64,000 nt of DNA from a virus. Every line of letters starts with the position of its first letter. Position 1 is the stretch's first letter. The DNA is taken from positions 1 through 64,000 of IMG/VR virus record IMGVR_UViG_3300025897_002116, one strand, 5' to 3'. Shown in pieces: positions 2,306-56,405 of the stretch. Made by a program: the position numbers and the translations under genes. The notes beneath the pieces were generated by a model. That model was not told the DNA's origin. It worked only from the letters and a program-made list of their open reading frames with translations, and made no database searches.

Positions 2306-3459
2306 TATTCAGTAAATACTTTTTTAGATTTGATTGATGATGGTCCACCTGGGTTGATTAGTGTTAGAAGTCTCTGTGCTTCTTTGATGATTGTTGGACC
2401 TTCGGTGTTTAAATTTACTACCGGGCCCCCTGTTAAAGAGGTAGCAACTTGTAACTGCACTCCTAGGTTTCTAATCAAAACCAATAAGTCTTTTAATAAT
2501 CCTTCAAGAGCATCTCCTTTTATTATAGGTTCTCTTTCATTTTTTAATGCTTGTTTACCTAGGTATATTTTTGTAGCATCTAATCCTATACTATTAATAC
2601 CGTCGATACTCGTATTTTCTGAAGTAAAAGCAATTGTCTTTTTTGCTGAAAGTATTATACTCTCTTCTCTTGCATTAAAGAATAAGCGATTGCTGTTCAT
2701 AAGTATCTGAGAACCTTTATATACGTCTGCTTGTACTAGGGTATCTCCTTTATTAGCATCCGCTTTATTATTAGAAGGGGTTAGAGGTATAGTGTGGTTA
2801 GAGGTTAGAAAGATTGAAGAAGCGTCTTTGTTAACATCCTCTACTATATGGTCATCTTCATTACCGTTTTGACCATTACTTATAACAGTAAACGGGTCAC
2901 CGTTATTAGAATTATCTGAGAATATATTTCCGTATCCACTAGTACCTGATAGTCTTATGGATTGTCCTAACCTACCTTCTATTAAGGTATCACCGGGGAA
3001 AGGCTGTAAAGGTTTAATTTCCGTATTTTCTTCAAAATCAGAACCAAAGTCTACTTTAGCACTGCTTCCTGCGTCTATTGATGCATTATGATTAGGGTGA
3101 TTCCATACAGAAACTACTGTGGTGTAGTATTTATGTGAATCCGTACTAAGGTTATTAGATGCCTCTACTGTTGGTCCATCTGTCAATAGAACTATTTCAT
3201 TTTTTAGAGGAAGAAATCTTATATTAGAGCTAATAGGAAAAGCTACCGGTAGGGTTGATGGATCACTTACATCAATAGCTCTATCAGCAATAGAATACTT
3301 AATTGCCCCAATAGCATTAGATCTGCCGTATTTTTCATACTCAGGATGAGTGGCGTCTAATATTACATCAACAACCCGGACAGGTACTGTCTTACGTTTA
3401 AATGTCGGACGTGTATCTTGACTAGAAGTAATATTAAAAGATTTATTCCTTATCGGCAT
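2305..3459 (-). CDS. Baseplate hub/spike protein, gp5/VgrG-like
   Basis: N-terminal OB-fold-like segment (PLKNEIV), GDTLIEGRLGQSIR, and beta-helix-like C-terminus; baseplate context. Confidence 0.7.
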   Translation of the reverse strand: MPIRNKSFNITSSQDTRPTFKRKTVPVRVVDVILDATHPEYEKYGRSNAIGAIKYSIADRAIDVSDPSTLPVAFPISSNIRFLPLKNEIVLLTDGPTVEASNNLSTDSHKYYTTVVSVWNHPNHNASIDAGSSAKVDFGSDFEENTEIKPLQPFPGDTLIEGRLGQSIRLSGTSGYGNIFSDNSNNGDPFTVISNGQNGNEDDHIVEDVNKDASSIFLTSNHTIPLTPSNNKADANKGDTLVQADVYKGSQILMNSNRLFFNAREESIILSAKKTIAFTSENTSIDGINSIGLDATKIYLGKQALKNEREPIIKGDALEGLLKDLLVLIRNLGVQLQVATSLTGGPVVNLNTEGPTIIKEAQRLLTLINPGGPSSIKSKKVFTE

Positions 3460-3805
3460 TATCTTGTTTCTGTTCTAATTGCTGATCTGTATTTTCTTGC
3501 TCTAATAACAAATCCTGAATATCTGAAAAGTCGAAATCACCGCTATCTCCTTTTGTTATAGCACTTTCAATTCTCTGTATGATTGTCGCTAACTTAATCA
3601 AGGCATCGTCGTTCTTTACTCCTATCTCCATGTATTCTTTTATCATAGGAACAATCAGAGTTGCATCGCCAATGTTCTCTATAAGAGGTTTAAGCTCAGA
3701 GATGAGAGATTTTACTTGTACTTTAGTCTCTTTAGAATTATCGTAAATTTCTCCAAAAAGATCAGATAGAGTCTTACCTTTAAATATTTCTTTATCTAAG
3801 CTCAT
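3443..3805 (-). CDS. Hypothetical helical phage protein
   Basis: 120-aa ORF preceded by CTATTTAT motif. Confidence 0.6.
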   Translation of the reverse strand: MSLDKEIFKGKTLSDLFGEIYDNSKETKVQVKSLISELKPLIENIGDATLIVPMIKEYMEIGVKNDDALIKLATIIQRIESAITKGDSGDFDFSDIQDLLLEQENTDQQLEQKQDNADKE

Positions 3806-43703: not shown

Positions 43704-44933
43704 TTACAAATATCTCTTAATACTTTTCTTTTCTTTCCAACCCTCTGTACCGTCGGTGTATTTAACTCTAATCTTACTAGGGGACTTTTGTAGAACTCTT
43801 GCTACTTTTTTTTCTTTTAATTCTGATCCGTCTTCATTGAGAGTTATCCATTCATCTTCCGGAGCTTTTTCTTTTATTGCTTCTGTAACTTCTGCTTCTT
43901 CTTTAATCTCCTCCAAATTTTCTGGTGTCGGGAGTGAAGTTTCTTCTATAATTTGTTCTTTTTTTACTTCAATATCATCTAGTACTTCATCTAATGTTTC
44001 TTCTAAACTTTCTATTTTAGAATCTTTATCTATGGAGTTAAAAAAGTCTACAGCTTCTTCTTCAGTGTAATTTAGTTTACCTTCTTGAAGTTCTCCGTAT
44101 AGATTTTCTTCATATTTCTTTTTAGGGAAAGCTTGCTCAAAAGCAAAGTTTGCTGCAATTACTAGGGAAAGTGCTAGTGGGTCAAAAACAAATATAATTA
44201 TAAGGAGTAAAATATTTATAATTTTATCCATAGGTACACCTGTTAGTCCGGAAAGGTATTGAAGTGGGCCTAATTCACCAGTAGCTTCATTATCGTTCTC
44301 TAAAGTAAGTATATTGAGTTGGTATTTTTGTAGGCTATCAGCAACTATTTCTCTTTTTGCTTGAACTGCTTTCCTATTTTCTTCTTCTACTGTTATCCTT
44401 TTTTGAGATAACCTAAGTTCAGTAGTCGATATAGTATTTCTTATCCCTGTTGCTGCCGTAGTATCTCTAACCTGTATACCGGTGGCTTTGGCGTTGGAGA
44501 GTATAGATATATTCTCTGATATTCTATTGAGTTCTGTATCGTACCTCTTGACATCGCTTTCGTAGAAGTCTTTTTTTTGAGTCAAGAATAAAACTTTATT
44601 GTCTTTAATTGATAGACTCCTATAAGTATCCTGATATGCTGCACTTAGGAAACCGTAGATACCCATACTAGTAATGAGTACTAGCACTAGGGCAGCAATG
44701 GAGAGATACGCTCTAAGCCATTTGTTTAGGTTACCCCAGTACTGATAAAGAAGTGAAGCTATAACCAGCTTAGCTATTTCTAATGAACCAGCCATAAGTA
44801 TGACTGCGAATGATGCTCCGGCAAAAAGTTTACTAAGGCCGCTGACTGAGTAAAAAGCAGCTGAAGCTGATACAGATAAGGCGGATAAGGTAATTACAGA
44901 GGGGAAGAATCCTTTCTTAATATTTTTCCACAT
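43704..44933 (-). CDS. Multi-TM plus coiled-coil membrane protein
   Basis: Three N-terminal TMs (LEIAKLV), a long coiled coil, then a FVFDPLA TM. Confidence 0.75.
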   Translation of the reverse strand: MWKNIKKGFFPSVITLSALSVSASAAFYSVSGLSKLFAGASFAVILMAGSLEIAKLVIASLLYQYWGNLNKWLRAYLSIAALVLVLITSMGIYGFLSAAYQDTYRSLSIKDNKVLFLTQKKDFYESDVKRYDTELNRISENISILSNAKATGIQVRDTTAATGIRNTISTTELRLSQKRITVEEENRKAVQAKREIVADSLQKYQLNILTLENDNEATGELGPLQYLSGLTGVPMDKIINILLLIIIFVFDPLALSLVIAANFAFEQAFPKKKYEENLYGELQEGKLNYTEEEAVDFFNSIDKDSKIESLEETLDEVLDDIEVKKEQIIEETSLPTPENLEEIKEEAEVTEAIKEKAPEDEWITLNEDGSELKEKKVARVLQKSPSKIRVKYTDGTEGWKEKKSIKRYL

Positions 44934-44948
44934 AGAGTTCTTTATTAG

Positions 44949-45383
44949 TTAAGTACCAATTATATTTAATAAGAGTACTACAGCTCCGATTACAGAACCT
45001 ATCTGGTATAATTTTTTTTGTTTTTGAGCTTTCTTTAAAGACGATTGTAGTTGATCTGAGAGTTCTTGAAAAGCTGTTAATTGTTTGTCTTTGTTACTGG
45101 ATATTAAGTTTAAATTCTCGATTTGTTTTTGCTGATTGAATACTAGTTCGTTCAAACTTAATACTTTACCGTTGATGCTTTCAATTAATTCATTTAGATT
45201 TATATTTTCTAAAACTACTCCATCAAGCCTAGTTAGATCCTTAGCTACTAATTTAGCGATTGGAGTTGTTAGTTGAATCGTTTTTGTAGTATCCGTAGCG
45301 TTTTGCGAAAAACTGTTCAAGCTCATCATCACCAAAGTAATCAATAGCATCCAATTTAATTTTTGTTTCATCTTGTATGACAA
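44949..45383 (-). CDS. Putative spanin-like subunit (secreted coiled coil with C-terminal TM)
   Basis: Signal ending SFS-Q, coiled coil, C-terminal hydrophobic tail; overlaps the upstream gene. Confidence 0.45.
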   Translation of the reverse strand: MSYKMKQKLNWMLLITLVMMSLNSFSQNATDTTKTIQLTTPIAKLVAKDLTRLDGVVLENINLNELIESINGKVLSLNELVFNQQKQIENLNLISSNKDKQLTAFQELSDQLQSSLKKAQKQKKLYQIGSVIGAVVLLLNIIGT

Positions 45384-45633
45384 TTATTTTTGTATTAAGT
45401 TTTTTAATTTTAATATCATAAGAAGCTATTTCTTCATTAAGATTAGTAGCCTGTATTTTTAAACTATCATTTAGAAATTGGACAGAATCTACTCTTAGTT
45501 GTAATGAATCAATCTGTGATTTGTAAACATCAATGTCTACTACTTCTTCACTTGATTTTATGAAAACCATATAAATTAGAAGTAACCCGGCAATTAAAAG
45601 CCCTAGATTTTTCTTTATATACTTTATCATCAT
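45253..45633 (-). CDS. Putative i-spanin-like protein
   Basis: N-terminal TM plus coiled coil directly after the endolysin. Confidence 0.5.
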   Translation of the reverse strand: MMIKYIKKNLGLLIAGLLLIYMVFIKSSEEVVDIDVYKSQIDSLQLRVDSVQFLNDSLKIQATNLNEEIASYDIKIKKLNTKIIVIQDETKIKLDAIDYFGDDELEQFFAKRYGYYKNDSTNNSNR

Positions 45634-45657
45634 ATTAATATAGTAAAATTTTTCCCC

Positions 45658-46269
45658 TTATGCAACTATATCCTTAGATTCTATTAGAGTGTAGGTAAAT
45701 GAATTACCCCATACATCTTTAGCTTTATTACAGATCTCCATAAATTGATTGAAATCTGATTCTTTTGCAAACACTTGGCAGCCGGCAGACCATTTATCTA
45801 TCTGAGTTGATCCAGCTACTCTTGATCCTGCTTTATGTATGTTAATACCAAATATCCCTTCTTTTACATTTTCTTCAATCATATCATACTTTCCGTCTTC
45901 ATTATTATCACGGTAAACTTTAACAGGTTTTTGCTGCCTTAAAGCTTCATACTTACCTTGATGTAATCCAACCTTATGAGACCCTCTATACTGGCCTGGT
46001 TTTAAAATAGCTACGCCATCTTCATTCATTATATTCTCTACCCAGTGTTTTCCAGGGTCTGTGGTACAGTCTGATTCGTAGTATTTCCAGTTACCGTCTG
46101 GGTCTTTAAATGATATTGTCATCTTATCGTCAAACTTATTTGTTACTTGATCGCCGGTACTTGAATTTCTAATTCCAACGATGTTAACGTCTAATCCTTT
46201 ATCACTTGTAAAGTACTTATATCCTTTACTTCTTACTGCTTTTTCAATTTGATCTCTAGTATAACTCAT
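45658..46269 (-). CDS. Putative endolysin, L,D-transpeptidase (YkuD)-like fold
   Basis: GINIH ... WSAGCQV (His/Cys catalytic pair); between holin and spanin candidates. Confidence 0.7.
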   Translation of the reverse strand: MSYTRDQIEKAVRSKGYKYFTSDKGLDVNIVGIRNSSTGDQVTNKFDDKMTISFKDPDGNWKYYESDCTTDPGKHWVENIMNEDGVAILKPGQYRGSHKVGLHQGKYEALRQQKPVKVYRDNNEDGKYDMIEENVKEGIFGINIHKAGSRVAGSTQIDKWSAGCQVFAKESDFNQFMEICNKAKDVWGNSFTYTLIESKDIVA

Positions 46270-46279
46270 AATTTATTTT

Positions 46280-46543
46280 TTATTCGGATTCTCCTTTTTT
46301 TCCGAAGATTTTTCCGGCTTCAGCGATTCCAAAAGAACCTAATGTGATTATTACAAATGAATTGTAAACAAATTCATTAATTTCTAGTTCCTGGCCAGTA
46401 AACCCTGTTACTATGTCAGCTGTTGCAAATAGTACCATTACTGCAAATGAAGAAAAACCAACTACTGATTTTTCGTTAATATCGTTTTTATCTTTGAAAA
46501 TGTCTCTGAAGGCCATCCATTTATGATTTAAATAATTAAACAT
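46280..46543 (-). CDS. Putative holin
   Basis: 87 aa, two TMs, charged C-terminus; first gene after CTATTTAT at 46580-46587. Confidence 0.55.
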   Translation of the reverse strand: MFNYLNHKWMAFRDIFKDKNDINEKSVVGFSSFAVMVLFATADIVTGFTGQELEINEFVYNSFVIITLGSFGIAEAGKIFGKKGESE

Positions 46544-46614
46544 AGCTTAATAACATTTTAAGTAAAACATTTATTTAGTATAAATAGTCAAGTAGAAACA
46601 CGGAATTGGGGTTC

Positions 46615-47604
46615 CTAAGTAGAGAGGTTTTTCTTGAAAATAATCTTTCTCCAATAATTATTTAATTCACTTAGTAATAAACCAGCTTCACCAAGTTCAG
46701 AACGGTTATCGGGATATCCTATTTCTTTATCATAATCAAAATCTTCTACATCTTCTATGAATTCATACATATCAGGATTAACTCTCTTTAACTTTGGAAT
46801 ATCCCTTCTCCAAAGATGTGAAGGTAATTGTGTTTGGGATTTATATAAATTATTTATATGGTCATCTGGTAGTTCGTTATCTCCTGTAAATGAATGAATC
46901 ATTTTAGTTCCCATTTGTCCTATGAGTGTTTGATAAGTGGCAAGTGAAGTATGTAGTATACCATCTTCTTTATCTAATACTAAATCAGCAGGCATATTTA
47001 TAACCTTCATACTATCAAGAAGTTCTCGTAAAGAATTAACATTAACTATATACGATTGAGCTCCTGGTGCTTCAAATCTTCTGATATGCTGTAATCTACC
47101 ATTCAAATTTATTCCTCGTATTTCGGGTGTTGCTCTACCCAACCAGAGTATATCGAATGAAAGTTTTATAATATCTTCTACCAATAGAGTGTACTCACCA
47201 TCTTGAATAGAATTAATTAATGCAGTTGTTGGTCTAGCATCATCTTCTAAAAATAAAAAATATCCTAGTGAATTTCCATTAGAATCGAATTCATTCAAAG
47301 CAATCTCATACGCCTTCTGATGAGATAATGCAACTCCAATAATATTTTTAGAAAGATTCCCTGATGGGTCTATAAATGTATCCAATCTACCAGTTTGTAT
47401 CATAGATTTGATATCAAGATCTCTACCCATTATAGCATCTACAAATTCATATTCTAAATCAGACCATTCCCAAGCTTTAGTAAATTCCTGTCTTCTATAA
47501 CTATCCTTTTCGGATATTACATAAACTTTATCTGCTCCAAAATTTTGTAAGTGGGCAATATTAGTCTTTATCGACACTCTTAATTTCCTTTGGCAAGAAT
47601 TCAA
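46615..47604 (-). CDS. Glycosyltransferase family 25-like
   Basis: YVIS....RR, FVDAIMG, GVALSH, FLEDDA, SYIV. Confidence 0.75.
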   Translation of the reverse strand: MNSCQRKLRVSIKTNIAHLQNFGADKVYVISEKDSYRRQEFTKAWEWSDLEYEFVDAIMGRDLDIKSMIQTGRLDTFIDPSGNLSKNIIGVALSHQKAYEIALNEFDSNGNSLGYFLFLEDDARPTTALINSIQDGEYTLLVEDIIKLSFDILWLGRATPEIRGINLNGRLQHIRRFEAPGAQSYIVNVNSLRELLDSMKVINMPADLVLDKEDGILHTSLATYQTLIGQMGTKMIHSFTGDNELPDDHINNLYKSQTQLPSHLWRRDIPKLKRVNPDMYEFIEDVEDFDYDKEIGYPDNRSELGEAGLLLSELNNYWRKIIFKKNLST

Positions 47605-47788
47605 CGTTTACATGTCCGCATTTAGTACAAGCAAAAACGGGAATTGGAATATAAGAGGGTTTTCCAGTTCCTGTAAGAAATCCTGATGCTTTTCTTATAA
47701 TGATATGCTGTTCAAAATAAACTCCATTGCATTCATCACACGTAATTCCTGTTGTCTGGTTAAGATCTATGTTTAGTTGTTGTTCCAT
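47561..47788 (-). CDS. Zn-ribbon protein
   Basis: CDEC ... CTKCGH. Confidence 0.7.
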   Translation of the reverse strand: MEQQLNIDLNQTTGITCDECNGVYFEQHIIIRKASGFLTGTGKPSYIPIPVFACTKCGHVNVEFLPKEIKSVDKD

Positions 47789-47794
47789 AGTTAC

Positions 47795-47974
47795 TTACTT
47801 TTTAACTATAGTCGATTTTTTAGCACGAGGCTTTCTAGGTTTTGCAGATGGTTTTTTTGTTTTTTTGATTTGTGCTGCAGCTTTGGCTTTTCGTTCAGCT
47901 GCAAACTTAGATACGACATAGATTACTAGTACAGTAGATATTAGGATTAAACTAAAAATTGCAAATAATTTCAT
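47795..47974 (-). CDS. Small TM-anchored Lys/Ala-rich protein (59 aa, not in ORF track)
   Basis: MKLFAIFSLILISTVLVIYVV-SKFAAERKAKAAAQIKKTKKPSAKPRKPRAKK. Confidence 0.6.
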   Translation of the reverse strand: MKLFAIFSLILISTVLVIYVVSKFAAERKAKAAAQIKKTKKPSAKPRKPRAKKSTIVKK

Positions 47975-48019
47975 AGGTGTTTTTTAAAATTTGATATAAA
48001 TATATATTAATTAACTAAG

Positions 48020-48490
48020 TTAGTATTTATTTTCTAAGTAGAAATAAAAATCTAGGATAGTGCCTTTAGATTCTAAGATTTCATCATCGTACTCTTTGTC
48101 GGGAATGCCGAATTTTTTACATAAGCCTTTTTTTAGTGCTTCTAATCGTTTTGATTCTTCTTTTTCAAAATCTACGAGAAGTCTTTTTCTTCTAGCCCTT
48201 GCTAGTGAGGTTTCTTCCACCCATTTAAGTTGGTCTCGGATTGAAAGTTGGAATTTTTCATTTAACTGGTGTTCTACTATTTCAGCTTCAAATTCAAATG
48301 GTGCATAATCAAAATCGCCATTCTCTATTCTATCAAGAATAGGCGCGTTTGCCGGTAAAGGTTTAGTTTTTGCCGTAAAACTTCTCCACCACATAAATCG
48401 ATCATATGGCTTTTTATAGTAATTTTTTTTAAAGTATCTTTCTAACCAAGTTAATTTATGGGTAGGACTATAAGGTAATGAAATATCCAT
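48020..48490 (-). CDS. Hypothetical protein
   Basis: 156-aa ORF (FMWWR, RIENGDF). Confidence 0.65.
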   Translation of the reverse strand: MDISLPYSPTHKLTWLERYFKKNYYKKPYDRFMWWRSFTAKTKPLPANAPILDRIENGDFDYAPFEFEAEIVEHQLNEKFQLSIRDQLKWVEETSLARARRKRLLVDFEKEESKRLEALKKGLCKKFGIPDKEYDDEILESKGTILDFYFYLENKY

Positions 48491-48504
48491 ATCTAAATAT
48501 AGTA

Positions 48505-48948
48505 TTAAATTTTTAAAAATCCAACTTTTTCAAAGAATTTCTGTCCTCTTATATTATCTTTAACGCAATAAAGTCTAATATCTTTACCTACATGATAGCA
48601 AACATAATTACAGAAATCATGGGAGTCACCGTGTATTCTCTTTTTTGAGACAAACATATTATAGAGGTAATTATTATCAAACCAAACATAGCCGAGAACA
48701 TTATTATTCTCCTTTAAAACAAACATTAAATTGTTTTTTTGAAATCTATGTTTGGCTTCTTCAACATTAAACATTCCTGCCCATTGTATTTCTGAGTTGA
48801 ATAAGTCAATGCATTTTTGGACTAGATGGAGATCATCAGGTTCTACTTGTTGAACATTTAAATTAGGTCTAAGTGTAGGTGCTTTAAAAACCTCTTTATC
48901 GGCAATGTACCAAATTTTTTTTGTAGGATCTTCAACAAGTGGAAACAT
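48505..48948 (-). CDS. GNAT-fold acetyltransferase-like protein
   Basis: LGYVW, YNMFVS, N..GQKFFEKVGF. Confidence 0.7.
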   Translation of the reverse strand: MFPLVEDPTKKIWYIADKEVFKAPTLRPNLNVQQVEPDDLHLVQKCIDLFNSEIQWAGMFNVEEAKHRFQKNNLMFVLKENNNVLGYVWFDNNYLYNMFVSKKRIHGDSHDFCNYVCYHVGKDIRLYCVKDNIRGQKFFEKVGFLKI

Positions 48949-49121
48949 TACTTAGTCTTTTGTAGTATTTCAAGAGCGCGTTGTATTTCTTCAGTTGTGT
49001 ATTCTAAGAGAATTTGATAAGCTCGTCGATCATCTACTTTTCGTTTAAAGTCTTTTGATTCGCTTTGATGACTTGAAAGTCTATTTTGTCTATCATGCCA
49101 GGCTGTAATTGTATCACTCAT
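48948..49121 (-). CDS. Small hypothetical protein (57 aa, not in ORF track)
   Basis: MSDTITAWHDRQ...; TAATG coupling to the GNAT gene; promoter variant at 49122-49177. Confidence 0.55.
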   Translation of the reverse strand: MSDTITAWHDRQNRLSSHQSESKDFKRKVDDRRAYQILLEYTTEEIQRALEILQKTK

Positions 49122-49178
49122 AACTTTCTATTTTTATATTTACTTAAAGATAGTATAATTTAACCAGAAAACCAACTA

Positions 49179-49679
49179 TTACAAGTTTTTATTATGAACT
49201 AAAATACCATTAGCAAAAAAATTACTATTGTCTTCTACATGAAAAATATAAGTCTGTACTGGTTCTCTCTCCTGTTCTTCTAAGTCTACAAGTTTTACAT
49301 TCTCTAGTTCCAAATCAATTAAACTATCTCCTACTTTAAGTTGATTAATTTCGGAGGTAAAAGTGTATCTTGCTGATGTTAGGTTTGGTTTATAAGATGC
49401 TAGGTGTTTACCCTCAACATAGTATGGATGATCAAATGTAGAAATTATTTCAATATCATTTTCTAATATCAATTTGATTAAGTCATTATGTATAGAGGTA
49501 GAAACTTCTATTACTTCTTTAACTTCTATTTCTTGAGTTTTTTCGTTATAAGAGAGAACAAAATCACCTATTCTAATGTCCTCTATGTACTTAGTATAGT
49601 AATCCTCCATGGTAACCTCTGTACCTGCTACAAAGCAAAGTTTATTGGACATTTGTTTACTATTTAAAAATTTTTCCAT
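49179..49679 (-). CDS. Stand-alone Hint (intein-like) domain protein
   Basis: CFVAGTEV, STFDHP, NFFANGILVHN-KNL. Confidence 0.9.
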   Translation of the reverse strand: MEKFLNSKQMSNKLCFVAGTEVTMEDYYTKYIEDIRIGDFVLSYNEKTQEIEVKEVIEVSTSIHNDLIKLILENDIEIISTFDHPYYVEGKHLASYKPNLTSARYTFTSEINQLKVGDSLIDLELENVKLVDLEEQEREPVQTYIFHVEDNSNFFANGILVHNKNL

Positions 49680-49761
49680 TTATATCTATTAAATTTTTGA
49701 AATATTTACACTTGCTTTAAGGAAATAAAACAGTCTGCACTATACTTTTCATATGCTACTT

Positions 49762-50904
49762 TCAAATTAAACTTTTTGCTTTCTTTTTTAAATCTTTATT
49801 TTTTACTTGTATTACTATTTGGTATTTAGTTCCTTCTTCTACTTTATCATATGTCATATGCTGCCAAGGTTTATAAATATATACATCTCCTTGTTTAATC
49901 TTACAAACAGCGCATCCTCCTTCTTTACTTCGTTCCCAACTTTCTTCTGCAATAAGGTTACCTCCTTTGAAATTATCATTTAAGTATATATCAATACTCA
50001 TACATAGTTGTTCAGGGGCAGATAAAGGCATTCCTTTAGTAGTCATAACATGTCTATCGTATTTATCTCCTTCTTTGTATCTGAATAGACTGATATCTAA
50101 ATCATTAAAATTAACATTATTAAACTCTTTAAATATTTTCTCACTAATGATACTATTTAATCTTTGATTAGATTTAATTTTTGGTACATATCCAAATCCT
50201 CTAGAATGCACTACTCCTTTTACTAAAGCTGAAGTTTTATGATCTTTTAAATCGTTAATATTATCTTCTAGAAGTTCATTACAAAGATCTTGAGGTATTA
50301 TATTAGTTAATTTACGAAAAAGAGGAGTGCAAACAAACTCTTTACCTACATAATAAGTCCAACATACTTCTTTATAGTCTCTCATAAATTTAGGATAAGA
50401 TTTGAGAGAGTCTTTCTTGAAATGATATATCTTTTTGTTTAAAAGTTTATCTTTTTTTAATCTAGCATATTCATATATCGATAAACAACAGTTTTGGTTA
50501 GCTATAGATTTAGCTGCTTCTTCAAACTTACCGTAACTTCTATCTTTATATGTATCCATAAAGATACCATCATACTTAATGCCTTTCTCTGCTAATGTAG
50601 GTATTACTTCAGTCCAGTCACCAAATAAGATAGTAACATTTGACTTACCTATAGCCCATTCTAACGCTTTTTCATAAATCTGAGGGTTTATTTCTATACA
50701 GGTGTAGTGGTTTGCAAGTTCTGACATTTTATTTGCCGAGAATCCCATTCCGAATCCAACATCAAGAACGTTGCCTCCATTTTCACAAACTACGTTTGAA
50801 TACATATCCATCAGAGATTTGGATATAGAATCCATTACAATGGAACGATTATTATTTTTTAGGTAAATTGTTTTACCTGTAAATACTACCTCTTTATCTC
50901 TCAT
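49762..50904 (-). CDS. Fusion: GAMT/Rmt2-like SAM methyltransferase plus 2OG-Fe(II) oxygenase-like domain
   Basis: GGNVLDVGFGMG, CIEINP, DGIFMDTY; C-terminal RYKEGD.Y.RH, YLNDNFKGG, H...V..G.KY. Confidence 0.75.
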   Translation of the reverse strand: MRDKEVVFTGKTIYLKNNNRSIVMDSISKSLMDMYSNVVCENGGNVLDVGFGMGFSANKMSELANHYTCIEINPQIYEKALEWAIGKSNVTILFGDWTEVIPTLAEKGIKYDGIFMDTYKDRSYGKFEEAAKSIANQNCCLSIYEYARLKKDKLLNKKIYHFKKDSLKSYPKFMRDYKEVCWTYYVGKEFVCTPLFRKLTNIIPQDLCNELLEDNINDLKDHKTSALVKGVVHSRGFGYVPKIKSNQRLNSIISEKIFKEFNNVNFNDLDISLFRYKEGDKYDRHVMTTKGMPLSAPEQLCMSIDIYLNDNFKGGNLIAEESWERSKEGGCAVCKIKQGDVYIYKPWQHMTYDKVEEGTKYQIVIQVKNKDLKKKAKSLI

Positions 50905-51425
50905 ATTAAACTTGTATCTAATTTTAATCGCGTTTTTGATATTCCTATTTGGAATATTTCAATATTATGTGGGAGTTCAATTACGAATTTTATAATATTA
51001 GAAACTTCTGAGAATTTTAGTTTTTGATTTTTTACTAACTTAGCACTCTCTAATGTATTAGGGTATACATTTATAATACGAACTTCCTTTTCTATATCTC
51101 GTAATTCAAATGTTTTTTGTTCTAAATGTTTTTTATCCTCAATATACTTTTGATTAGGGCCTCCAAATATTAATGCAGATGTTAGTATATTAATTATAGT
51201 TTTAGGTTTATATTTCCACTCTTTATAAACAAGTTCAAATAAATCAGATTGTAATTTATCTTTATATTCATTATTAATAAATACATCATACTCGTTTATC
51301 ACATTTGAAAAGTAATGTGCATACGAATCAGTAGTACTTAGGGAATCAGCTTTATGACCATTTGAAGAGAGATGATCTTTTATATTCTTTCCCAATCCAT
51401 AATTTCCTGTAACTAATATTTTCAT
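50901..51425 (-). CDS. Short-chain dehydrogenase/reductase-like protein
   Basis: ILVTG.YGLG, DVFINN, IINI, Y...K. Confidence 0.7.
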   Translation of the reverse strand: MKILVTGNYGLGKNIKDHLSSNGHKADSLSTTDSYAHYFSNVINEYDVFINNEYKDKLQSDLFELVYKEWKYKPKTIINILTSALIFGGPNQKYIEDKKHLEQKTFELRDIEKEVRIINVYPNTLESAKLVKNQKLKFSEVSNIIKFVIELPHNIEIFQIGISKTRLKLDTSLI

Positions 51426-51437
51426 ACCATAAAGGTA

Positions 51438-51932
51438 TTACAGTAGTGGGTTTTTTAAATCTAAATGTTCGTAAAAGTAGAACCCGATTAAACTCCATCG
51501 ATTTCCCTTAGTAACTTCTAAGACTTCGTGTTCTAATGAATGTTTAAAAGTGTAAAGGGAACCTGTATTTTTTGGTAGTATCTGGTATTTCGGTTGGTGT
51601 ATAACAAAATCACCTCCTTCGTAATCTTCATTTAAAGAAGCTCCTATATTATAAATCTGATTATCATAATAGATATCTCTATGTCTACCGAACTTGTCAC
51701 CAACGGAATAGTTAAACATATGAATAGCATCTAAACTTTTAACAACTTTAATTCCAGTTGTTTCAGTAAAGTAAGAATCCATTCTATCAAAAATCCACCG
51801 TATATATTGATTCCACCCAATAGAATAAAAATTATAACTAATAGGACGTGGGTATTCATTCCTCTCTGTCTTTTGTAACTTAGCCGAAAGTTTTATAATA
51901 GCATCACATTCTTGTTTATTAAATGAAATCAT
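51438..51932 (-). CDS. 2OG-Fe(II) oxygenase (prolyl-hydroxylase-like)
   Basis: Y..GD.F.RHRD, LNEDYEGGDF, HEV.EVTKG.RWSL. Confidence 0.88.
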   Translation of the reverse strand: MISFNKQECDAIIKLSAKLQKTERNEYPRPISYNFYSIGWNQYIRWIFDRMDSYFTETTGIKVVKSLDAIHMFNYSVGDKFGRHRDIYYDNQIYNIGASLNEDYEGGDFVIHQPKYQILPKNTGSLYTFKHSLEHEVLEVTKGNRWSLIGFYFYEHLDLKNPLL

Positions 51933-52075
51933 CAAAGATGCTTAGCACTAAATAATTCAAAAAATTTAGTTACAGTTCGTCTAATTTGAGATTTTTCAGT
52001 ATCAGTCAATACTTGTACAGTTCGATTTTGAACATTAGTATTTGATACTTTTTTGTATAATGTTGGTTTTTTCAT
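51932..52075 (-). CDS. Small basic 47-aa peptide (not in ORF track)
   Basis: MKKPTLYKKVSNTNVQNRTVQVLTDTEKSQIRRTVTKFFELFSAKHL; TGATG coupling to the oxygenase. Confidence 0.65.
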   Translation of the reverse strand: MKKPTLYKKVSNTNVQNRTVQVLTDTEKSQIRRTVTKFFELFSAKHL

Positions 52076-52083
52076 ACTATTAA

Positions 52084-54402
52084 TTATTTATTGTGCACTA
52101 ATATTCCGTTAGCGTAAAAATTTCTATTATCTTCAACGGAAAAAATATAAGTTTGAGTTGGTACAACTGGTAGTTCCGTTATACTCAAAATAGTAGTTTC
52201 AATATCACTATCTAATGTGTATACCGTATCACCAACTTTTATCTGAGAAACTTCTAACGGTAAGTCATATCTTTCGTTTGTTAACTTAGGAGCATACGAT
52301 GCAAGTTCTAAATTATTTACATAGAATGGGTGGTCATGTGTAGATATAACTTCTGTTTGATTTGAAAAAGTATATTTAACCAAATCATCATGTACTGGTG
52401 ATTCAGTATCTAATACATTCTTATCTTGATGTATTCCAGTTTTTTCATTATACGTTAAGACTGTATCACCAACTACTACGTCTTCTATGTTTTTTTCATC
52501 TCCATTGGATAACATAATTGAAGTTCCTGCAATAAAACAATACCTATTATGTACCAATACCTTATTTGCAAAAAAGTTATGATTTACTTCTACTGTCTTT
52601 ACATTGTAAACAGCAGTTGGTTCTGTTAGTATTTCGGTTGATAATATTGTTAATTCTGAACCATCTTGTTTAAATACTTTGAATCCTTCTTCTGCTTTTG
52701 TTGTAGTAAGATTGTATACACCTGTAGTGTAATCTGGGTCCATAGATACCCATCCTTTTTCTTTTGAATATAATGGATGATCTAACGTTGATTCTATAAT
52801 ACTGTTATCTTCAAATGTGTATTTTACAGTTGTATTTACCAATTTGGATCCGATTCCTTTAACTAAGTGCGGCTCTACTACATTAGTAGCAAAATTAAAA
52901 GACAAAACAGAATCTCCTATTTTAATATCTTCTACTAATTTATACTCGCCATTTGCTAAGGTAATTTCAGTTCCTGCTACAAAACAAGGAGCGTTGTGTG
53001 ATACGATGGCTTGAAAAGAAGTAGACCCACTTATGATATATGTATCAGTATCTTCAACATCTAACTCAACAATTTTCAAACCAGTATCGGATGTTACATA
53101 AAAGTTAACCTCGTCTATATCAATAATATTACCGTTTAAATCAAAGAAATAATCATCATCCGGGTTTAGATATTGGGTAGGTTTATATGCTGTTTGATTT
53201 GAAGAAGAATTATAGACTAACCACTGTTTACCGGTGCCGGTGAATTTAGAATCTGAATCGATTACAACTTCCATAAGTGCATTATAAGTTGAATCTCTTT
53301 CTACTTTAAATACAACTTGTGATGATGTTATGAATGATCCAGATGGTAATTCGTTACCTTCAAAATTCCAAGCTAGTAATGTGGAATCGGATTCAACTTG
53401 TGGTGAACCAGAAATAAAATACGATGATACAAAGTCTCCGACTTCCGTATCTCCTATTTCGGTGAAAGTACCGTCTACCATTTGTATTTTATGAGTAGAC
53501 AATATACCAGATGATCCTGCTTTTATAAAGTTTGTAGCAAACTCATAATAATGAATATCTGATAGCTTATTAATGTACCTTGTTGTGTCCACTTCAGATG
53601 ATATGTCAGCAGGTAATTCAAATATAGAACTTATCTTATAACTATGTAGTGTTACTACACTTAAATCACTCCCATACACTATTTGAAAAGATCTTACAGA
53701 TGTTATGTGGCCATTATCATCGGTATTAGACGTATTATAGTGATATTGGAGGATTAATTTATCATCTCCTTTAATTTCCTCTACAAATGAATTCCATCTA
53801 TCTTCGTTTGACTCATTTTCTACTGTAGAACCTATTTTATAGAAACTAATAGGGTTATATACTTCGGTTATATCCTTTATAGCAACATCTGGAATATTAG
53901 ATGGGTTAATAGTTGATTCTAGTGTATTTGTAATTGAATCAGATCCAGAGTAATAATGTGAAACTACAAAACTACCGCTATCAGTTGAATCACTTGAATC
54001 AAATAAACTAAGTAGCTCTAATGTGCTTTTACAGTATACACTATCAAATAAAGCAGATTCATCATATGCTAACCTTAATATAAATTTATCATCTGAATCT
54101 TCTATACTTTCTGGGTATATTGTGTTTAAATCCTCTGGATGTAGAACTATATTATCAGCAAGTGATGGAATACTTGTGGTTATAGCAGTAGATATCGCAG
54201 AAACTATCTCATTGTGAAAAACTGGTTTGTAAGTAATATGTAACTCAGCTATGTCATTTGTAGTAAGGATTTCAGCAAATTCAGTAAAATTAAAATTTGA
54301 CAATTCATTACCGACTATACTAGTATCTGTGTTTATTTCTAATAACCTAAGATTTCCATTACTGTCTTTTGCAAAATCTGCAGAAAAAAATGTGCCTTTC
54401 AT
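52084..54402 (-). CDS. Circularly permuted ATP-grasp-like domain fused to three tandem Hint domains
   Basis: N-terminal DF..D.NG.LRLLEINT, then PDVAIK, LILQY, SVR; Hints at aa 299-470, 473-619 and 622-771, each ending HN. Confidence 0.8.
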   Translation of the reverse strand: MKGTFFSADFAKDSNGNLRLLEINTDTSIVGNELSNFNFTEFAEILTTNDIAELHITYKPVFHNEIVSAISTAITTSIPSLADNIVLHPEDLNTIYPESIEDSDDKFILRLAYDESALFDSVYCKSTLELLSLFDSSDSTDSGSFVVSHYYSGSDSITNTLESTINPSNIPDVAIKDITEVYNPISFYKIGSTVENESNEDRWNSFVEEIKGDDKLILQYHYNTSNTDDNGHITSVRSFQIVYGSDLSVVTLHSYKISSIFELPADISSEVDTTRYINKLSDIHYYEFATNFIKAGSSGILSTHKIQMVDGTFTEIGDTEVGDFVSSYFISGSPQVESDSTLLAWNFEGNELPSGSFITSSQVVFKVERDSTYNALMEVVIDSDSKFTGTGKQWLVYNSSSNQTAYKPTQYLNPDDDYFFDLNGNIIDIDEVNFYVTSDTGLKIVELDVEDTDTYIISGSTSFQAIVSHNAPCFVAGTEITLANGEYKLVEDIKIGDSVLSFNFATNVVEPHLVKGIGSKLVNTTVKYTFEDNSIIESTLDHPLYSKEKGWVSMDPDYTTGVYNLTTTKAEEGFKVFKQDGSELTILSTEILTEPTAVYNVKTVEVNHNFFANKVLVHNRYCFIAGTSIMLSNGDEKNIEDVVVGDTVLTYNEKTGIHQDKNVLDTESPVHDDLVKYTFSNQTEVISTHDHPFYVNNLELASYAPKLTNERYDLPLEVSQIKVGDTVYTLDSDIETTILSITELPVVPTQTYIFSVEDNRNFYANGILVHNK

Positions 54403-54419
54403 GTAGTAAGTATTTTAAA

Positions 54420-54427
54420 ATAAATAG
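54420..54427 (-). promoter_or_regulatory. Class II (putative late) promoter motif CTATTTAT
   Basis: Same octamer sits upstream of genes at 1468, 3820, 7366, 14626(+), 28999, 30974, 46580 and 57273. Confidence 0.65.
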
Positions 54428-54574
54428 AAGTATTTTCAGTAATACCTACTGATCTGTTAGTCTTTTTTACCATAGTCACCGTATAAGCATTCTACTCCCC
54501 GCTATACAGAAATTGTATCTTACTTAGCCCTACTGTGCGGTATGGGTACTTAAGGGTAACTATCTTTAATTAAT

Positions 54575-54742
54575 TTATTTGTTTTCCTCTACGGAAGCGG
54601 CACGGTAAGCTGTAATCAACTTTTTTATTTCACCTGCGAATTTGCGAGCTCTCTGTTGAGACGCTTTAGTAGTGCCGGAATTGTTTTCTGCTAATCCGTT
54701 AAAATTAGACTGTATTTCTTCAAATAACTCTTGTTTGTTCAT
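54575..54742 (-). CDS. Histone H1-like (Hc1-type, Bacteroidota) small protein (55 aa, not in ORF track)
   Basis: TKASQQRARKFAGEIKKLITAYRAASV resembles the KAA..RARK....I.K....YRK.S motif. Confidence 0.7.
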   Translation of the reverse strand: MNKQELFEEIQSNFNGLAENNSGTTKASQQRARKFAGEIKKLITAYRAASVEENK

Positions 54743-54761
54743 AATTTTTAATTTAATTGTT

Positions 54762-56405
54762 TTAACCTAATAGCATATTTGGATCTATACTATCTTCTTT
54801 TTTATTTAACTCTGGTGTAATAGAAACTACTGCTTCTGTTATTAACATCGTACCAGCTACCGATGCGGCATTTTCTAGTGCCAGTCTTGCGACTTTGGTC
54901 GGATCAATAATACCTGCTGAGAACATATTTACTTTCTTATTCTCTCTAGGATTATACCCTAACCAATTATCTTTAGAGTTTCGTAACTCTTTATCAATAC
55001 TGTTTATACTTTCGGCAGTAAATCCAGCATTCTGTAGTATCTTCTTAAATGGTGCCACACAGGAATTAAGTACTATCTGGTATCCTTTTCGTTCATCAGT
55101 AGAATCAATTGAATCTAATCTAGTTTGTAGCATTGTAGCTGCATTTAGTAATGCAATTCCTCCTCCAGGTAATATACCTTCTTCTAAAGCTGCTTTTGTA
55201 GCATGTAGTGCATCGTCAACTCTATCTTTCTTTTCTTTCATTTCAACCTCTGTATGACCTCCTACATGTACAATTGCTACTCCTCCAATAAATTTAGCTA
55301 AACGGTCTTGAAGGGTTTCTTTTTCGTAGGGTGAAACTGTATCGTCAATCTGGTGTTTTATCTCTTCAATACGAGCTGAGATTTTTTCTTCTGTTCCTTT
55401 AGCGTCAATAAGCGTGGTGGTGTCTTTACCCACAGTAACCTTATTAGCTTTACCAAGCCAGGTAGCATCAAATTTATCTAATCTCATTCCTTTTTCAGTA
55501 GATACTACTTGACCTCCAGTCATTATTGCAATATCCTCTAATACAGCTTTTCTTCTTTCTCCAAACTCAGGAGCTTTAACCGCCACTACATTTAGAATTC
55601 CTCTCATTTTATTAACAACAAGTGTCGACAAAGCTTCTCCATCTATATCTTCAGCAATTACTAATAATGATTTACTCTGTTGGGAGGCACCTTCTAAGAT
55701 AGGTAGTAACTCTTTTACCTGTGTTAGACGTTTATCTGTAATTAAAATTAACGGATCACGAAGAACAGCTGTCATTGTGGTATTATCGGTAACAAAATAA
55801 GGAGATTTATAACCTCTATCGAATTGCATTCCTTCGACAGTTTCTAAATATGTTTCTCCTGTTTTTGATTCCTCAATTGTCACAACTCCGTCTCTACCTA
55901 CCTTATCCATGGCAGTGGAAATTAATTCGCCTACTTCCGTATCATTATTAGCTGAAATGGTAGCGACTTGTTTTAGCTGCTCTTCATCCGTTATTTCTTT
56001 AGAGTAATCTTTCTGTAGGAATTCTACGACTTCTTTTACTGCTTTATCAATTCCTCTTTTAATATCTACTGCATTTGAACCTGCATCTAGAGAATTGATA
56101 CCTTCATCAAGAATGGATTGTGCAAGTAGAGTAGAAGTTGTAGTTCCGTCGCCGGCTTGTTCTCCTGTTTTAATAGAAGCTTGTTTTACAATTTGTGCTC
56201 CTAAATTTTCAACTTTATCTTTTAATTCAATAGATTTAGCAACTGTTACTCCGTCTTTAGTAGATATTGGATTTCCCATCTCTTGTTCTAAAATAACATT
56301 ACGACCTGAGGGTCCTAGTGTTGCGGTGACTGCATTTGCTAATTTATCTACTCCGTCTGCAAGTTTATTTCTTGCTTCTTTTGAAAAAATAATTTCTTTA
56401 TTCAT
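54762..56405 (-). CDS. groEL: Chaperonin GroEL
   Basis: [41 protein letters not shown]. Confidence 0.97.

Follow-up and report, generated by a model that had tools for sequence, protein, structure and literature searches.

A free-standing Hint gene of an uncultured marine phage resembles type A BIL domains and is under purifying selection

Here we describe a small phage gene that encodes a Hint domain and little else (49179..49679, minus strand; 166 amino acids plus stop). Judged by all the sequence features of the class, its product, which we call the free Hint, is type A BIL-like with predicted autocleavage, and the gene, being intact, under purifying selection and represented by a diverged orthologue, is not a decaying copy. 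Hint domains are generally understood as processing or splicing their own protein. In our preferred reading, to which we give slightly less than an even chance, the free Hint is a self-contained type A BIL-like autoprocessing unit that sheds its flanks, and the released domain would be the functional product.

The window, which is the whole 64,000-nt stretch of DNA that was analysed, comes from the 72,952-base IMG/VR virus record IMGVR_UViG_3300025897_002116, estimated by CheckV to be 44% complete. It is AT-rich (GC 0.326) and carries nearly all of its genes on the minus strand. When 12 kb of it (window 44000-56000) were compared with GenBank phages at the nucleotide level, the sole match was the gene of a phage-encoded GroEL chaperonin (window 54762-56405; PHROG 5725, E=2.3e-163), which is 75.7% identical to that of Flavobacterium phage 'immuto'. 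Marine and estuary metagenomes contain the same region repeatedly, and we therefore regard the source as an uncultured marine phage; from the GroEL match alone, our guess at its host would be a member of the Bacteroidota, perhaps a marine one of the Flavobacteriia.

The ORF opens with a 14-aa leader, MEKFLNSKQMSNKL (49638..49679, minus strand), followed by the Hint core from Cys15 to Asn163 (49191..49637, minus strand), in which alignments and Foldseek matches locate block B at Thr81 and His84 and block G at His162-Asn163. The chain ends with the three-residue tail Lys-Asn-Leu (49182..49190, minus strand), so that the +1 position is occupied by Lys164 and not by a splice nucleophile. The AlphaFold2 model is confident (mean pLDDT 89.9), with predicted disorder limited to leader residues 1-12 (pLDDT <50). 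An in-frame TAA immediately 5′ of the ATG makes a longer N terminus impossible, and residue 10, the second Met, is either Met or Val across the population, which identifies Met1 as the start; a preliminary description of this DNA had remarked on the tiny flanks of the domain, and both the 14 residues before Cys15 and the KNL after His162-Asn163 hold up. A scan for sigma-70 promoters and terminators found 4 promoter-like sites where 6.3 were expected, and no terminator. Two metatranscriptome runs include small parts of the region, with one contig of 151 nt that spans 49135-49282 and a second that spans 50208-50437; RNA libraries of this kind may also include DNA.

In Pfam searches the free Hint matched PT-HINT (PF07591) with E=1.8e-12 and 48.1 bits against a cutoff of 27.7, and the Intein_splicing and Hint models more weakly. 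An NCBIfam scan returned generic intein N- and C-terminal models only, and PADLOC gave no match for either the free Hint or its 57-aa neighbour. The best structural matches found by Foldseek were to Tetrahymena BUBL BIL2 (6y75/6tmm; TM 0.80-0.81 by query length and 0.85-0.89 by target length, 29-30% identity), and the C. thermocellum BIL 2lwy, which we take to be a 'type A' BIL, was also among the best. There were 66 PDB fold matches at E<=0.001, and those listed were all inteins, BILs or Hedgehog autoprocessing domains, with the canonical mini-inteins and Hedgehog (1at0, E 9.9e-07) ranking below the BILs. A family profile searched against PDB sequences gave E=1.9e-23 for BIL2, 5e-19 for the C. 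thermocellum BIL and 1e-9 or weaker for inteins.

The catalytic residues are conserved across the family. In an alignment of 55 units, which takes in three free copies of the free-standing clade, Cys1 is present in all 55, the block-B Thr in 52, and the block-B His and the His-Asn pair in 54 each; the +1 residue is Lys in 43 units, Arg in 8 and a gap in 4. At one position shortly before the C terminus the free-standing clade has Ser, whereas 37 of the 55 units have His. We take this position to be that of the block-F His, which aids C-terminal cleavage, and the tail of the free Hint may therefore be shed inefficiently.

Compared with known classes, the free Hint has the Hint superfamily fold together with the block A Cys15 and block B Thr81/His84, and it shares with the type A BIL of C. 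thermocellum (2lwy) the fold, the N-terminal Cys, Thr-x-x-His, the terminal His-Asn (His162-Asn163) and the lack of a +1 Cys, Ser or Thr. Because it has no +1 nucleophile, we class it as type A BIL-like and not as an intein. Unlike type A BILs, it is not embedded in a larger, variable bacterial protein: it has flanks of 14 and 3 residues only, is encoded by a phage genome and is part of a subfamily in which a basic residue is conserved at +1. Published BILs lie within larger bacterial proteins (PMC7765530). BIL2 of Tetrahymena thermophila BUBL1 (6y75, 6tmm), its best match by both profile and fold, is flanked by ubiquitin-like domains that are conjugated to lysines (PMC8616854), whereas the free Hint has no folded N-flank. 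Canonical mini-inteins (gp41-1, DnaB, DnaE) share the fold and blocks A, B and G, but the free Hint, with its +1 Lys, has neither a host protein nor a +1 nucleophile nor a homing endonuclease, so that it does not fit a canonical class 1 intein, and its sequence and fold matches to mini-inteins are weaker than those to BILs. Nor is it a Hedgehog-type Hog domain, as the chain stops 3 residues past His-Asn, without a sterol- or adduct-recruiting region.

The PT-HINT cassettes of polymorphic toxins resemble the free Hint in their Pfam match and, in Ruminococcus phage NatCom_3870, in a CDS that consists of a few residues and then a Hint. In these cassettes, however, a toxin-like domain follows His-Asn, with Ser at +1, whereas the free Hint has only Lys-Asn-Leu at this end and no C-terminal toxin domain. 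The NatCom_3870 locus (L097, 721-3780) encodes a 565-aa protein with an internal Hint and then a 265-aa CDS, in which 6 residues precede a near-identical Hint and a different, nuclease-like C-terminal domain. Orphan cassettes of polymorphic toxins have this arrangement, which here occurs in a phage.

The free Hint also scores above the cutoff of the Pfam AXH model (PF08517; 47.6 bits against 33). This match spans only residues 16-123 of what is a complete catalytic Hint, and we read it as a fold-level relation and not as membership. The AXH model likewise exceeds its gathering score for the Hint units at 52084-52986, and AXH chains of ataxin-1 and HBP1 match the Hint family profile at about 2e-10 to 5e-9, which suggests that AXH and the Hint domain, in its N-terminal half, are related closely enough for sequence searches to detect. 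Among the matches listed in a literature search, we found no paper treating both AXH and Hint.

The other Hint units of the genome lie in an array ORF 2.4 kb upstream of the free Hint gene. This ORF encodes a 772-aa protein (52084..54402, minus strand) that is composed of an N-domain, a degenerate Hint1, Hint2 and Hint3 and ends with ...HNK-stop. Hint3 (aa 622-771; 52090..52539, minus strand) is the closest paralogue of the free Hint within the genome. It is separated by Arg-Tyr from Hint2 (aa 473-619; 52546..52986, minus strand), so that Cys1 of Hint3 directly follows this dipeptide. Hint1 (aa ~300-470; 52993..53505, minus strand) lacks the N-terminal Cys and was found by fold (Foldseek match to BIL2 6y75, target TM 0.78-0.82, and also to intein structures); its C-terminal His-Asn is kept, and among 10 orthologues N470 never varies and H469 hardly does. 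The preliminary description had counted four Hints, and this count stands, with the free Hint, Hint2 and Hint3 complete and Hint1 degenerate. The motif stretches that it had quoted for the free Hint and Hint3 also align as claimed. Its term 'close paralogue of Hint3' applies insofar as Hint3 is the nearest in-genome copy; the identity of the two is only 48% over the free Hint core, against 37% for Hint2. A translated search of the record with the free Hint returned E=1.8e-44 for Hint3 and 3.5e-23 for Hint2, far beyond chance.

The N-domain of the 772-aa protein (aa 1-299, window 53506-54402) had no Pfam match at E<=1 and no homologue among GenBank phages. In the model (pLDDT 65) residues 1-118 are confident and the fold matches come mostly from Hint1; an N-terminal motif looks ATP-grasp-like, and the atlas assignment to an ATP-grasp/TTL cluster (0.84) lies below the counting level.

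Relatives were collected by a profile-guided scan of IMG/VR, which gave 80 loci, all of whose ORFs were then scanned with HMMs. In about 25 of the 80 loci, which are the closest relatives, C-terminal arrays of 1-5 Hint matches stand behind N-domains of ~300 aa, which fall in two unrelated families, and many of these array proteins end exactly in ...HNK; the more distant loci have single Hints within larger proteins. The range of 1-5 matches per protein among the 80 viral loci bears out the view of the preliminary description that Hint units are modular and duplicable. A second Hint ORF was absent, within the flanks examined, from all 12 loci that share the N-domain of the 772-aa protein. When the free Hint or a second free-standing homologue, P0041, served as the single query, viral contigs yielded no relative. 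An exhaustive HMMER search gave 6,615 relatives at E<=0.001, and the top 150 of these are, with few exceptions, long proteins that mostly contain several Hints. As far as can be judged from these sequences, the free-standing layout is rare, and among the loci examined a separate Hint gene occurs only in this small clade; the layout could be a peculiarity of one lineage. Of the remaining small Hint proteins (P0013, 155 aa; P0072, 151 aa; P0164, 162 aa; P0175, 174 aa; and entries of 141-147 aa), most look like array fragments or internal-Met calls, and in a quick tree P0072 adjoins the last unit of L005 and P0013 the last unit of L011. Four metagenomic proteins (P0017, P0018, P0025 and P0026) have a different layout, in which short Cys-rich peptides follow the Hint and sometimes also precede it; P0025 and P0026 have Ser at +1, and the peptides may be Hint-processed.

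Phylogenetic analysis, one of the checks that the preliminary description had proposed, placed the free copies of the window, of the TARA contig L084 and of the protein P0002 in one clade (100/100 support), nested among distal array units in a grouping that is itself supported (96/86). Judged from this tree, the free-standing Hint descends from a distal array unit. The stem of the clade is long (0.45 changes per column in the quick tree), and an AU test, on a tree that leaves out nine rows (three uncertain small proteins and six long branches), did not reject a grouping of the free clade with the Hint3 of this phage (p=0.296), so that a split from this Hint3 and an earlier split are both compatible with the data. 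The leader of the free Hint ends in N-K-L-C, much like the HN-[K/R]-x-C found where two units of an array meet. When the leader was considered as a possible relic of the tail of a preceding Hint, global alignments compared with shuffled sequences gave p=0.013 for Hint2, 0.19 for Hint3 and 0.82 for Hint1 in three tests.

Selection on the gene was assessed from L084, which is 87% identical to the window in DNA over the Hint gene and the genes downstream and carries an intact 165-aa copy. The dN/dS check, which had also been suggested beforehand, gave 0.21 for the free Hint (core 0.17; Nei-Gojobori) from the 19 substitutions of this one pair, 10 synonymous and 9 non-synonymous, which departs from neutrality (binomial p=0.0014) and indicates purifying selection. 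Neighbouring genes mostly have values of 0.14-0.38, the exception being a 57-aa gene at 1.2. This gene (48948-49121), just downstream of the Hint gene, is 71% identical to its L084 counterpart in amino acids, contains indels and is fast-evolving. Within the array, dN/dS is 0.11 for Hint2, 0.29 for Hint3 and 0.36 for Hint1. The constraint on distal units such as Hint3, although cleavage at the first unit alone would be enough to free the N-domain, fits units that matter individually.

Population data point in the same direction. The protein variant identical to that of the window was found on 29 contigs, and an independent contig of 2,484 nt, with 2 differences, covers the gene, so that an assembly artefact is excluded. 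At 90% identity, the protein cluster of the free Hint has 16 members, of which the 15 listed have 165-166 aa (protein clusters would hide truncated alleles). In a second cluster (P0002/P0041), proteins of 167 aa, 72-75% identical to the free Hint, are also free-standing, with a different leader, of 15 aa, and the tail KNA. A member of 126 aa, encoded on a 777-nt contig, is fragmentary. The catalytic positions are kept in all cluster members but two singletons, with H162R (P0001) and H84N (P0035).

The preliminary description had proposed that the functional product is either the Hint itself or the tiny peptide that it activates. The comparison favours the former, since the flanks are less conserved than the domain. 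In the close cluster, variation affects 4 of the 14 leader positions against 13 of the 152 positions outside the leader (Fisher p=0.04); the leader agrees with that of P0002 at about 5 of 14 positions in a protein that is 72-75% identical overall; and the tail occurs as KNL, KN, KNV and KNA. The conserved object is the Hint domain, which suggests that selection acts on the domain and not on a cargo.

If the free Hint is an autoprocessing unit, as we propose, Cys15 would attack the Leu14-Cys15 peptide bond in an N-S acyl shift aided by Thr81 and His84, and hydrolysis or thiolysis would remove the 14-residue leader. Asn163, with His162, would then cyclise and the tail of 2-3 residues would be shed, leaving a Hint domain of ~149 aa with an N-terminal Cys. 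The same kind of unit would leave the C-terminal array of the 772-aa protein, where units stand two residues apart. Type A BILs, as described in PMC4031507, have a C-terminal His-Asn and no +1 nucleophile; they form a thioester at the N terminus, cleavage proceeds through cyclisation of the Asn, and most of what they yield is cleavage products.

Two alternatives concern what the domain does. The Cys15 thioester might, as in BUBL BIL2, pass the 14-aa leader to a lysine or amine of a phage or host target, the adduct then being the product. This nearest solved relative forms an isopeptide bond to lysine and conjugates its N-flank ubl4 without ATP (PMC8616854), and a Lys at -2 with a hydrophobic residue at -1 is common to the window and P0002. 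We consider such a peptide transfer unlikely, however, as the leader is the least conserved part of the protein and is predicted to be disordered, and Arg is tolerated at +1 in 8 of the 55 units, so that the +1 Lys is unlikely to be a conserved nucleophile. Alternatively, the domain might not cleave at all and serve as an AXH-like binding or scaffold module, perhaps acting with the 772-aa array protein. The AXH score above cutoff and the match of ataxin-1 AXH chains to the family profile (E about 2e-10) would agree with this, and the clade-specific Ser before the C terminus could mean relaxed catalysis, but all five catalytic positions are kept in the window, in L084 and in the lineage at 72-75% identity, the exceptions being the two singletons, and we regard a non-catalytic role as improbable.

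Two further explanations would deny the protein a function. The gene might be a displaced array unit that serves as a donor of recombination homology, as orphan PT-HINT toxin cassettes do, without any role for the protein. Purifying selection on the protein is unexpected for an untranslated donor, the free Hint has its own ATG and no cargo, and its DNA similarity to the array is confined to patches of 69-96 nt at 72-81% identity, too little for efficient homologous exchange; we therefore hold this explanation to be quite improbable, even though the gene lies at a mosaic junction with a 9-bp repeat at its boundary, its leader end recalls the inter-unit junction, and the second CDS of the Ruminococcus phage offers a parallel, with a 6-aa leader, a Hint and a toxin-like C-terminal domain beside a longer protein with a near-identical Hint. 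The idea of a decaying duplicate, which the preliminary description had named as the case against its own proposal, or of a gene-calling error or assembly artefact, could draw on the absence of a free copy from the 12 more distant loci with the array gene (0/12) and on transcript support from RNA-library contigs, which can be DNA. It is contradicted by the dN/dS value, by intact, full-length variants in many independent marine assemblies, by the persistence of an orthologue at 72-75% identity with its catalytic residues and by the phage-like base composition of the gene (GC 0.287, GC3 0.21), and we give it hardly any credence.

Hint-only phage proteins are not unique to the window, since 5 of the best 50 viral fold matches in BFVD are proteins of 143-172 aa that are nearly all Hint (target TM 0.69-0.79): A0A1S5RCV4 of Lactobacillus phage P1 (143 aa), A0A8S5P792 (144 aa), A0A2Z3EFP0 (172 aa), A0A1C3NFC5 (153 aa) and A0A8S5VRF6 (151 aa). 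These are only 14-22% identical to the free Hint and are likened to it by fold alone, and a literature search found none of the five characterised. In a literature set mostly outside subscription journals, we found no account of free-standing BIL or intein genes or of phage C-terminal Hint arrays. To our knowledge, a cargo-independent function of Hint domains has not been described. 'Hint-only genes' are mentioned for animals in PMC9695228.

That a cargo-less Hint gene stays intact and under purifying selection, both across a marine phage population and in a lineage that has diverged from it, suggests that the domain as such has a role on which selection can act. As a speculative and rather doubtful extension of our preferred reading, the arrays of 1-5 units might be polyproteins that dispense free Hints as polyubiquitin does ubiquitin, this gene being the single-unit version and the Hint itself the phage product. 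If this were true, the released Hint, with its reactive N-terminal Cys, might have targets in the phage or the host: it could trap thioester intermediates, for instance, or, as a relative of BUBL BIL2, transfer acyl groups or peptides without ATP. Together with the phage arrays of variable length, the free Hint offers a simple, directly testable system of 166 aa, and it could supply a compact new self-cleaving or ligating tag.

The surroundings of the gene differ between the window and its relatives. Directly upstream of the Hint gene, L084 has an extra 1.73 kb with three genes, two of which encode 2OG-Fe(II) oxygenases (L084 3710-5521), and the Hint gene is separated from its upstream neighbour by 12 bases. 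The extra block is flanked in L084 by a 9-bp direct repeat, TTAATAGAT, which is present as a single copy in the window (49684-49692), and beside it the first of the missing genes is still represented by its initial ~70 bases; the 82-bp spacer of the window is therefore a deletion scar, and comparison with L084 (blastn) and Pfam shows 49684..49762 (minus strand) to be what is left, at the 5′ end, of a deleted 2OG-Fe(II) oxygenase gene. The genes that separate the array ORF from the free Hint gene are methyltransferase, SDR-like and 2OG-oxygenase genes and differ among relatives, and we saw no firm functional link between the neighbouring genes and the Hint. A 380-aa gene in this interval (window 49762-50904) has a methyltransferase N-half with 88% DNA identity to a separate 200-aa methyltransferase gene of L084; its C-half does not align to L084 DNA, where a separate 194-aa 2OG-oxygenase-like gene is found instead (2540-3723 compared), so that the two genomes differ here by a fusion or replacement. 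Of the 18 loci listed (L004-L047), 11 have a homologue of the 2OG-Fe(II) oxygenase gene at 51438..51935 within 6 kb of the gene for the Hint array, and in 6 of them a conserved 47-aa gene (51932..52075 in the window) directly follows the array gene.
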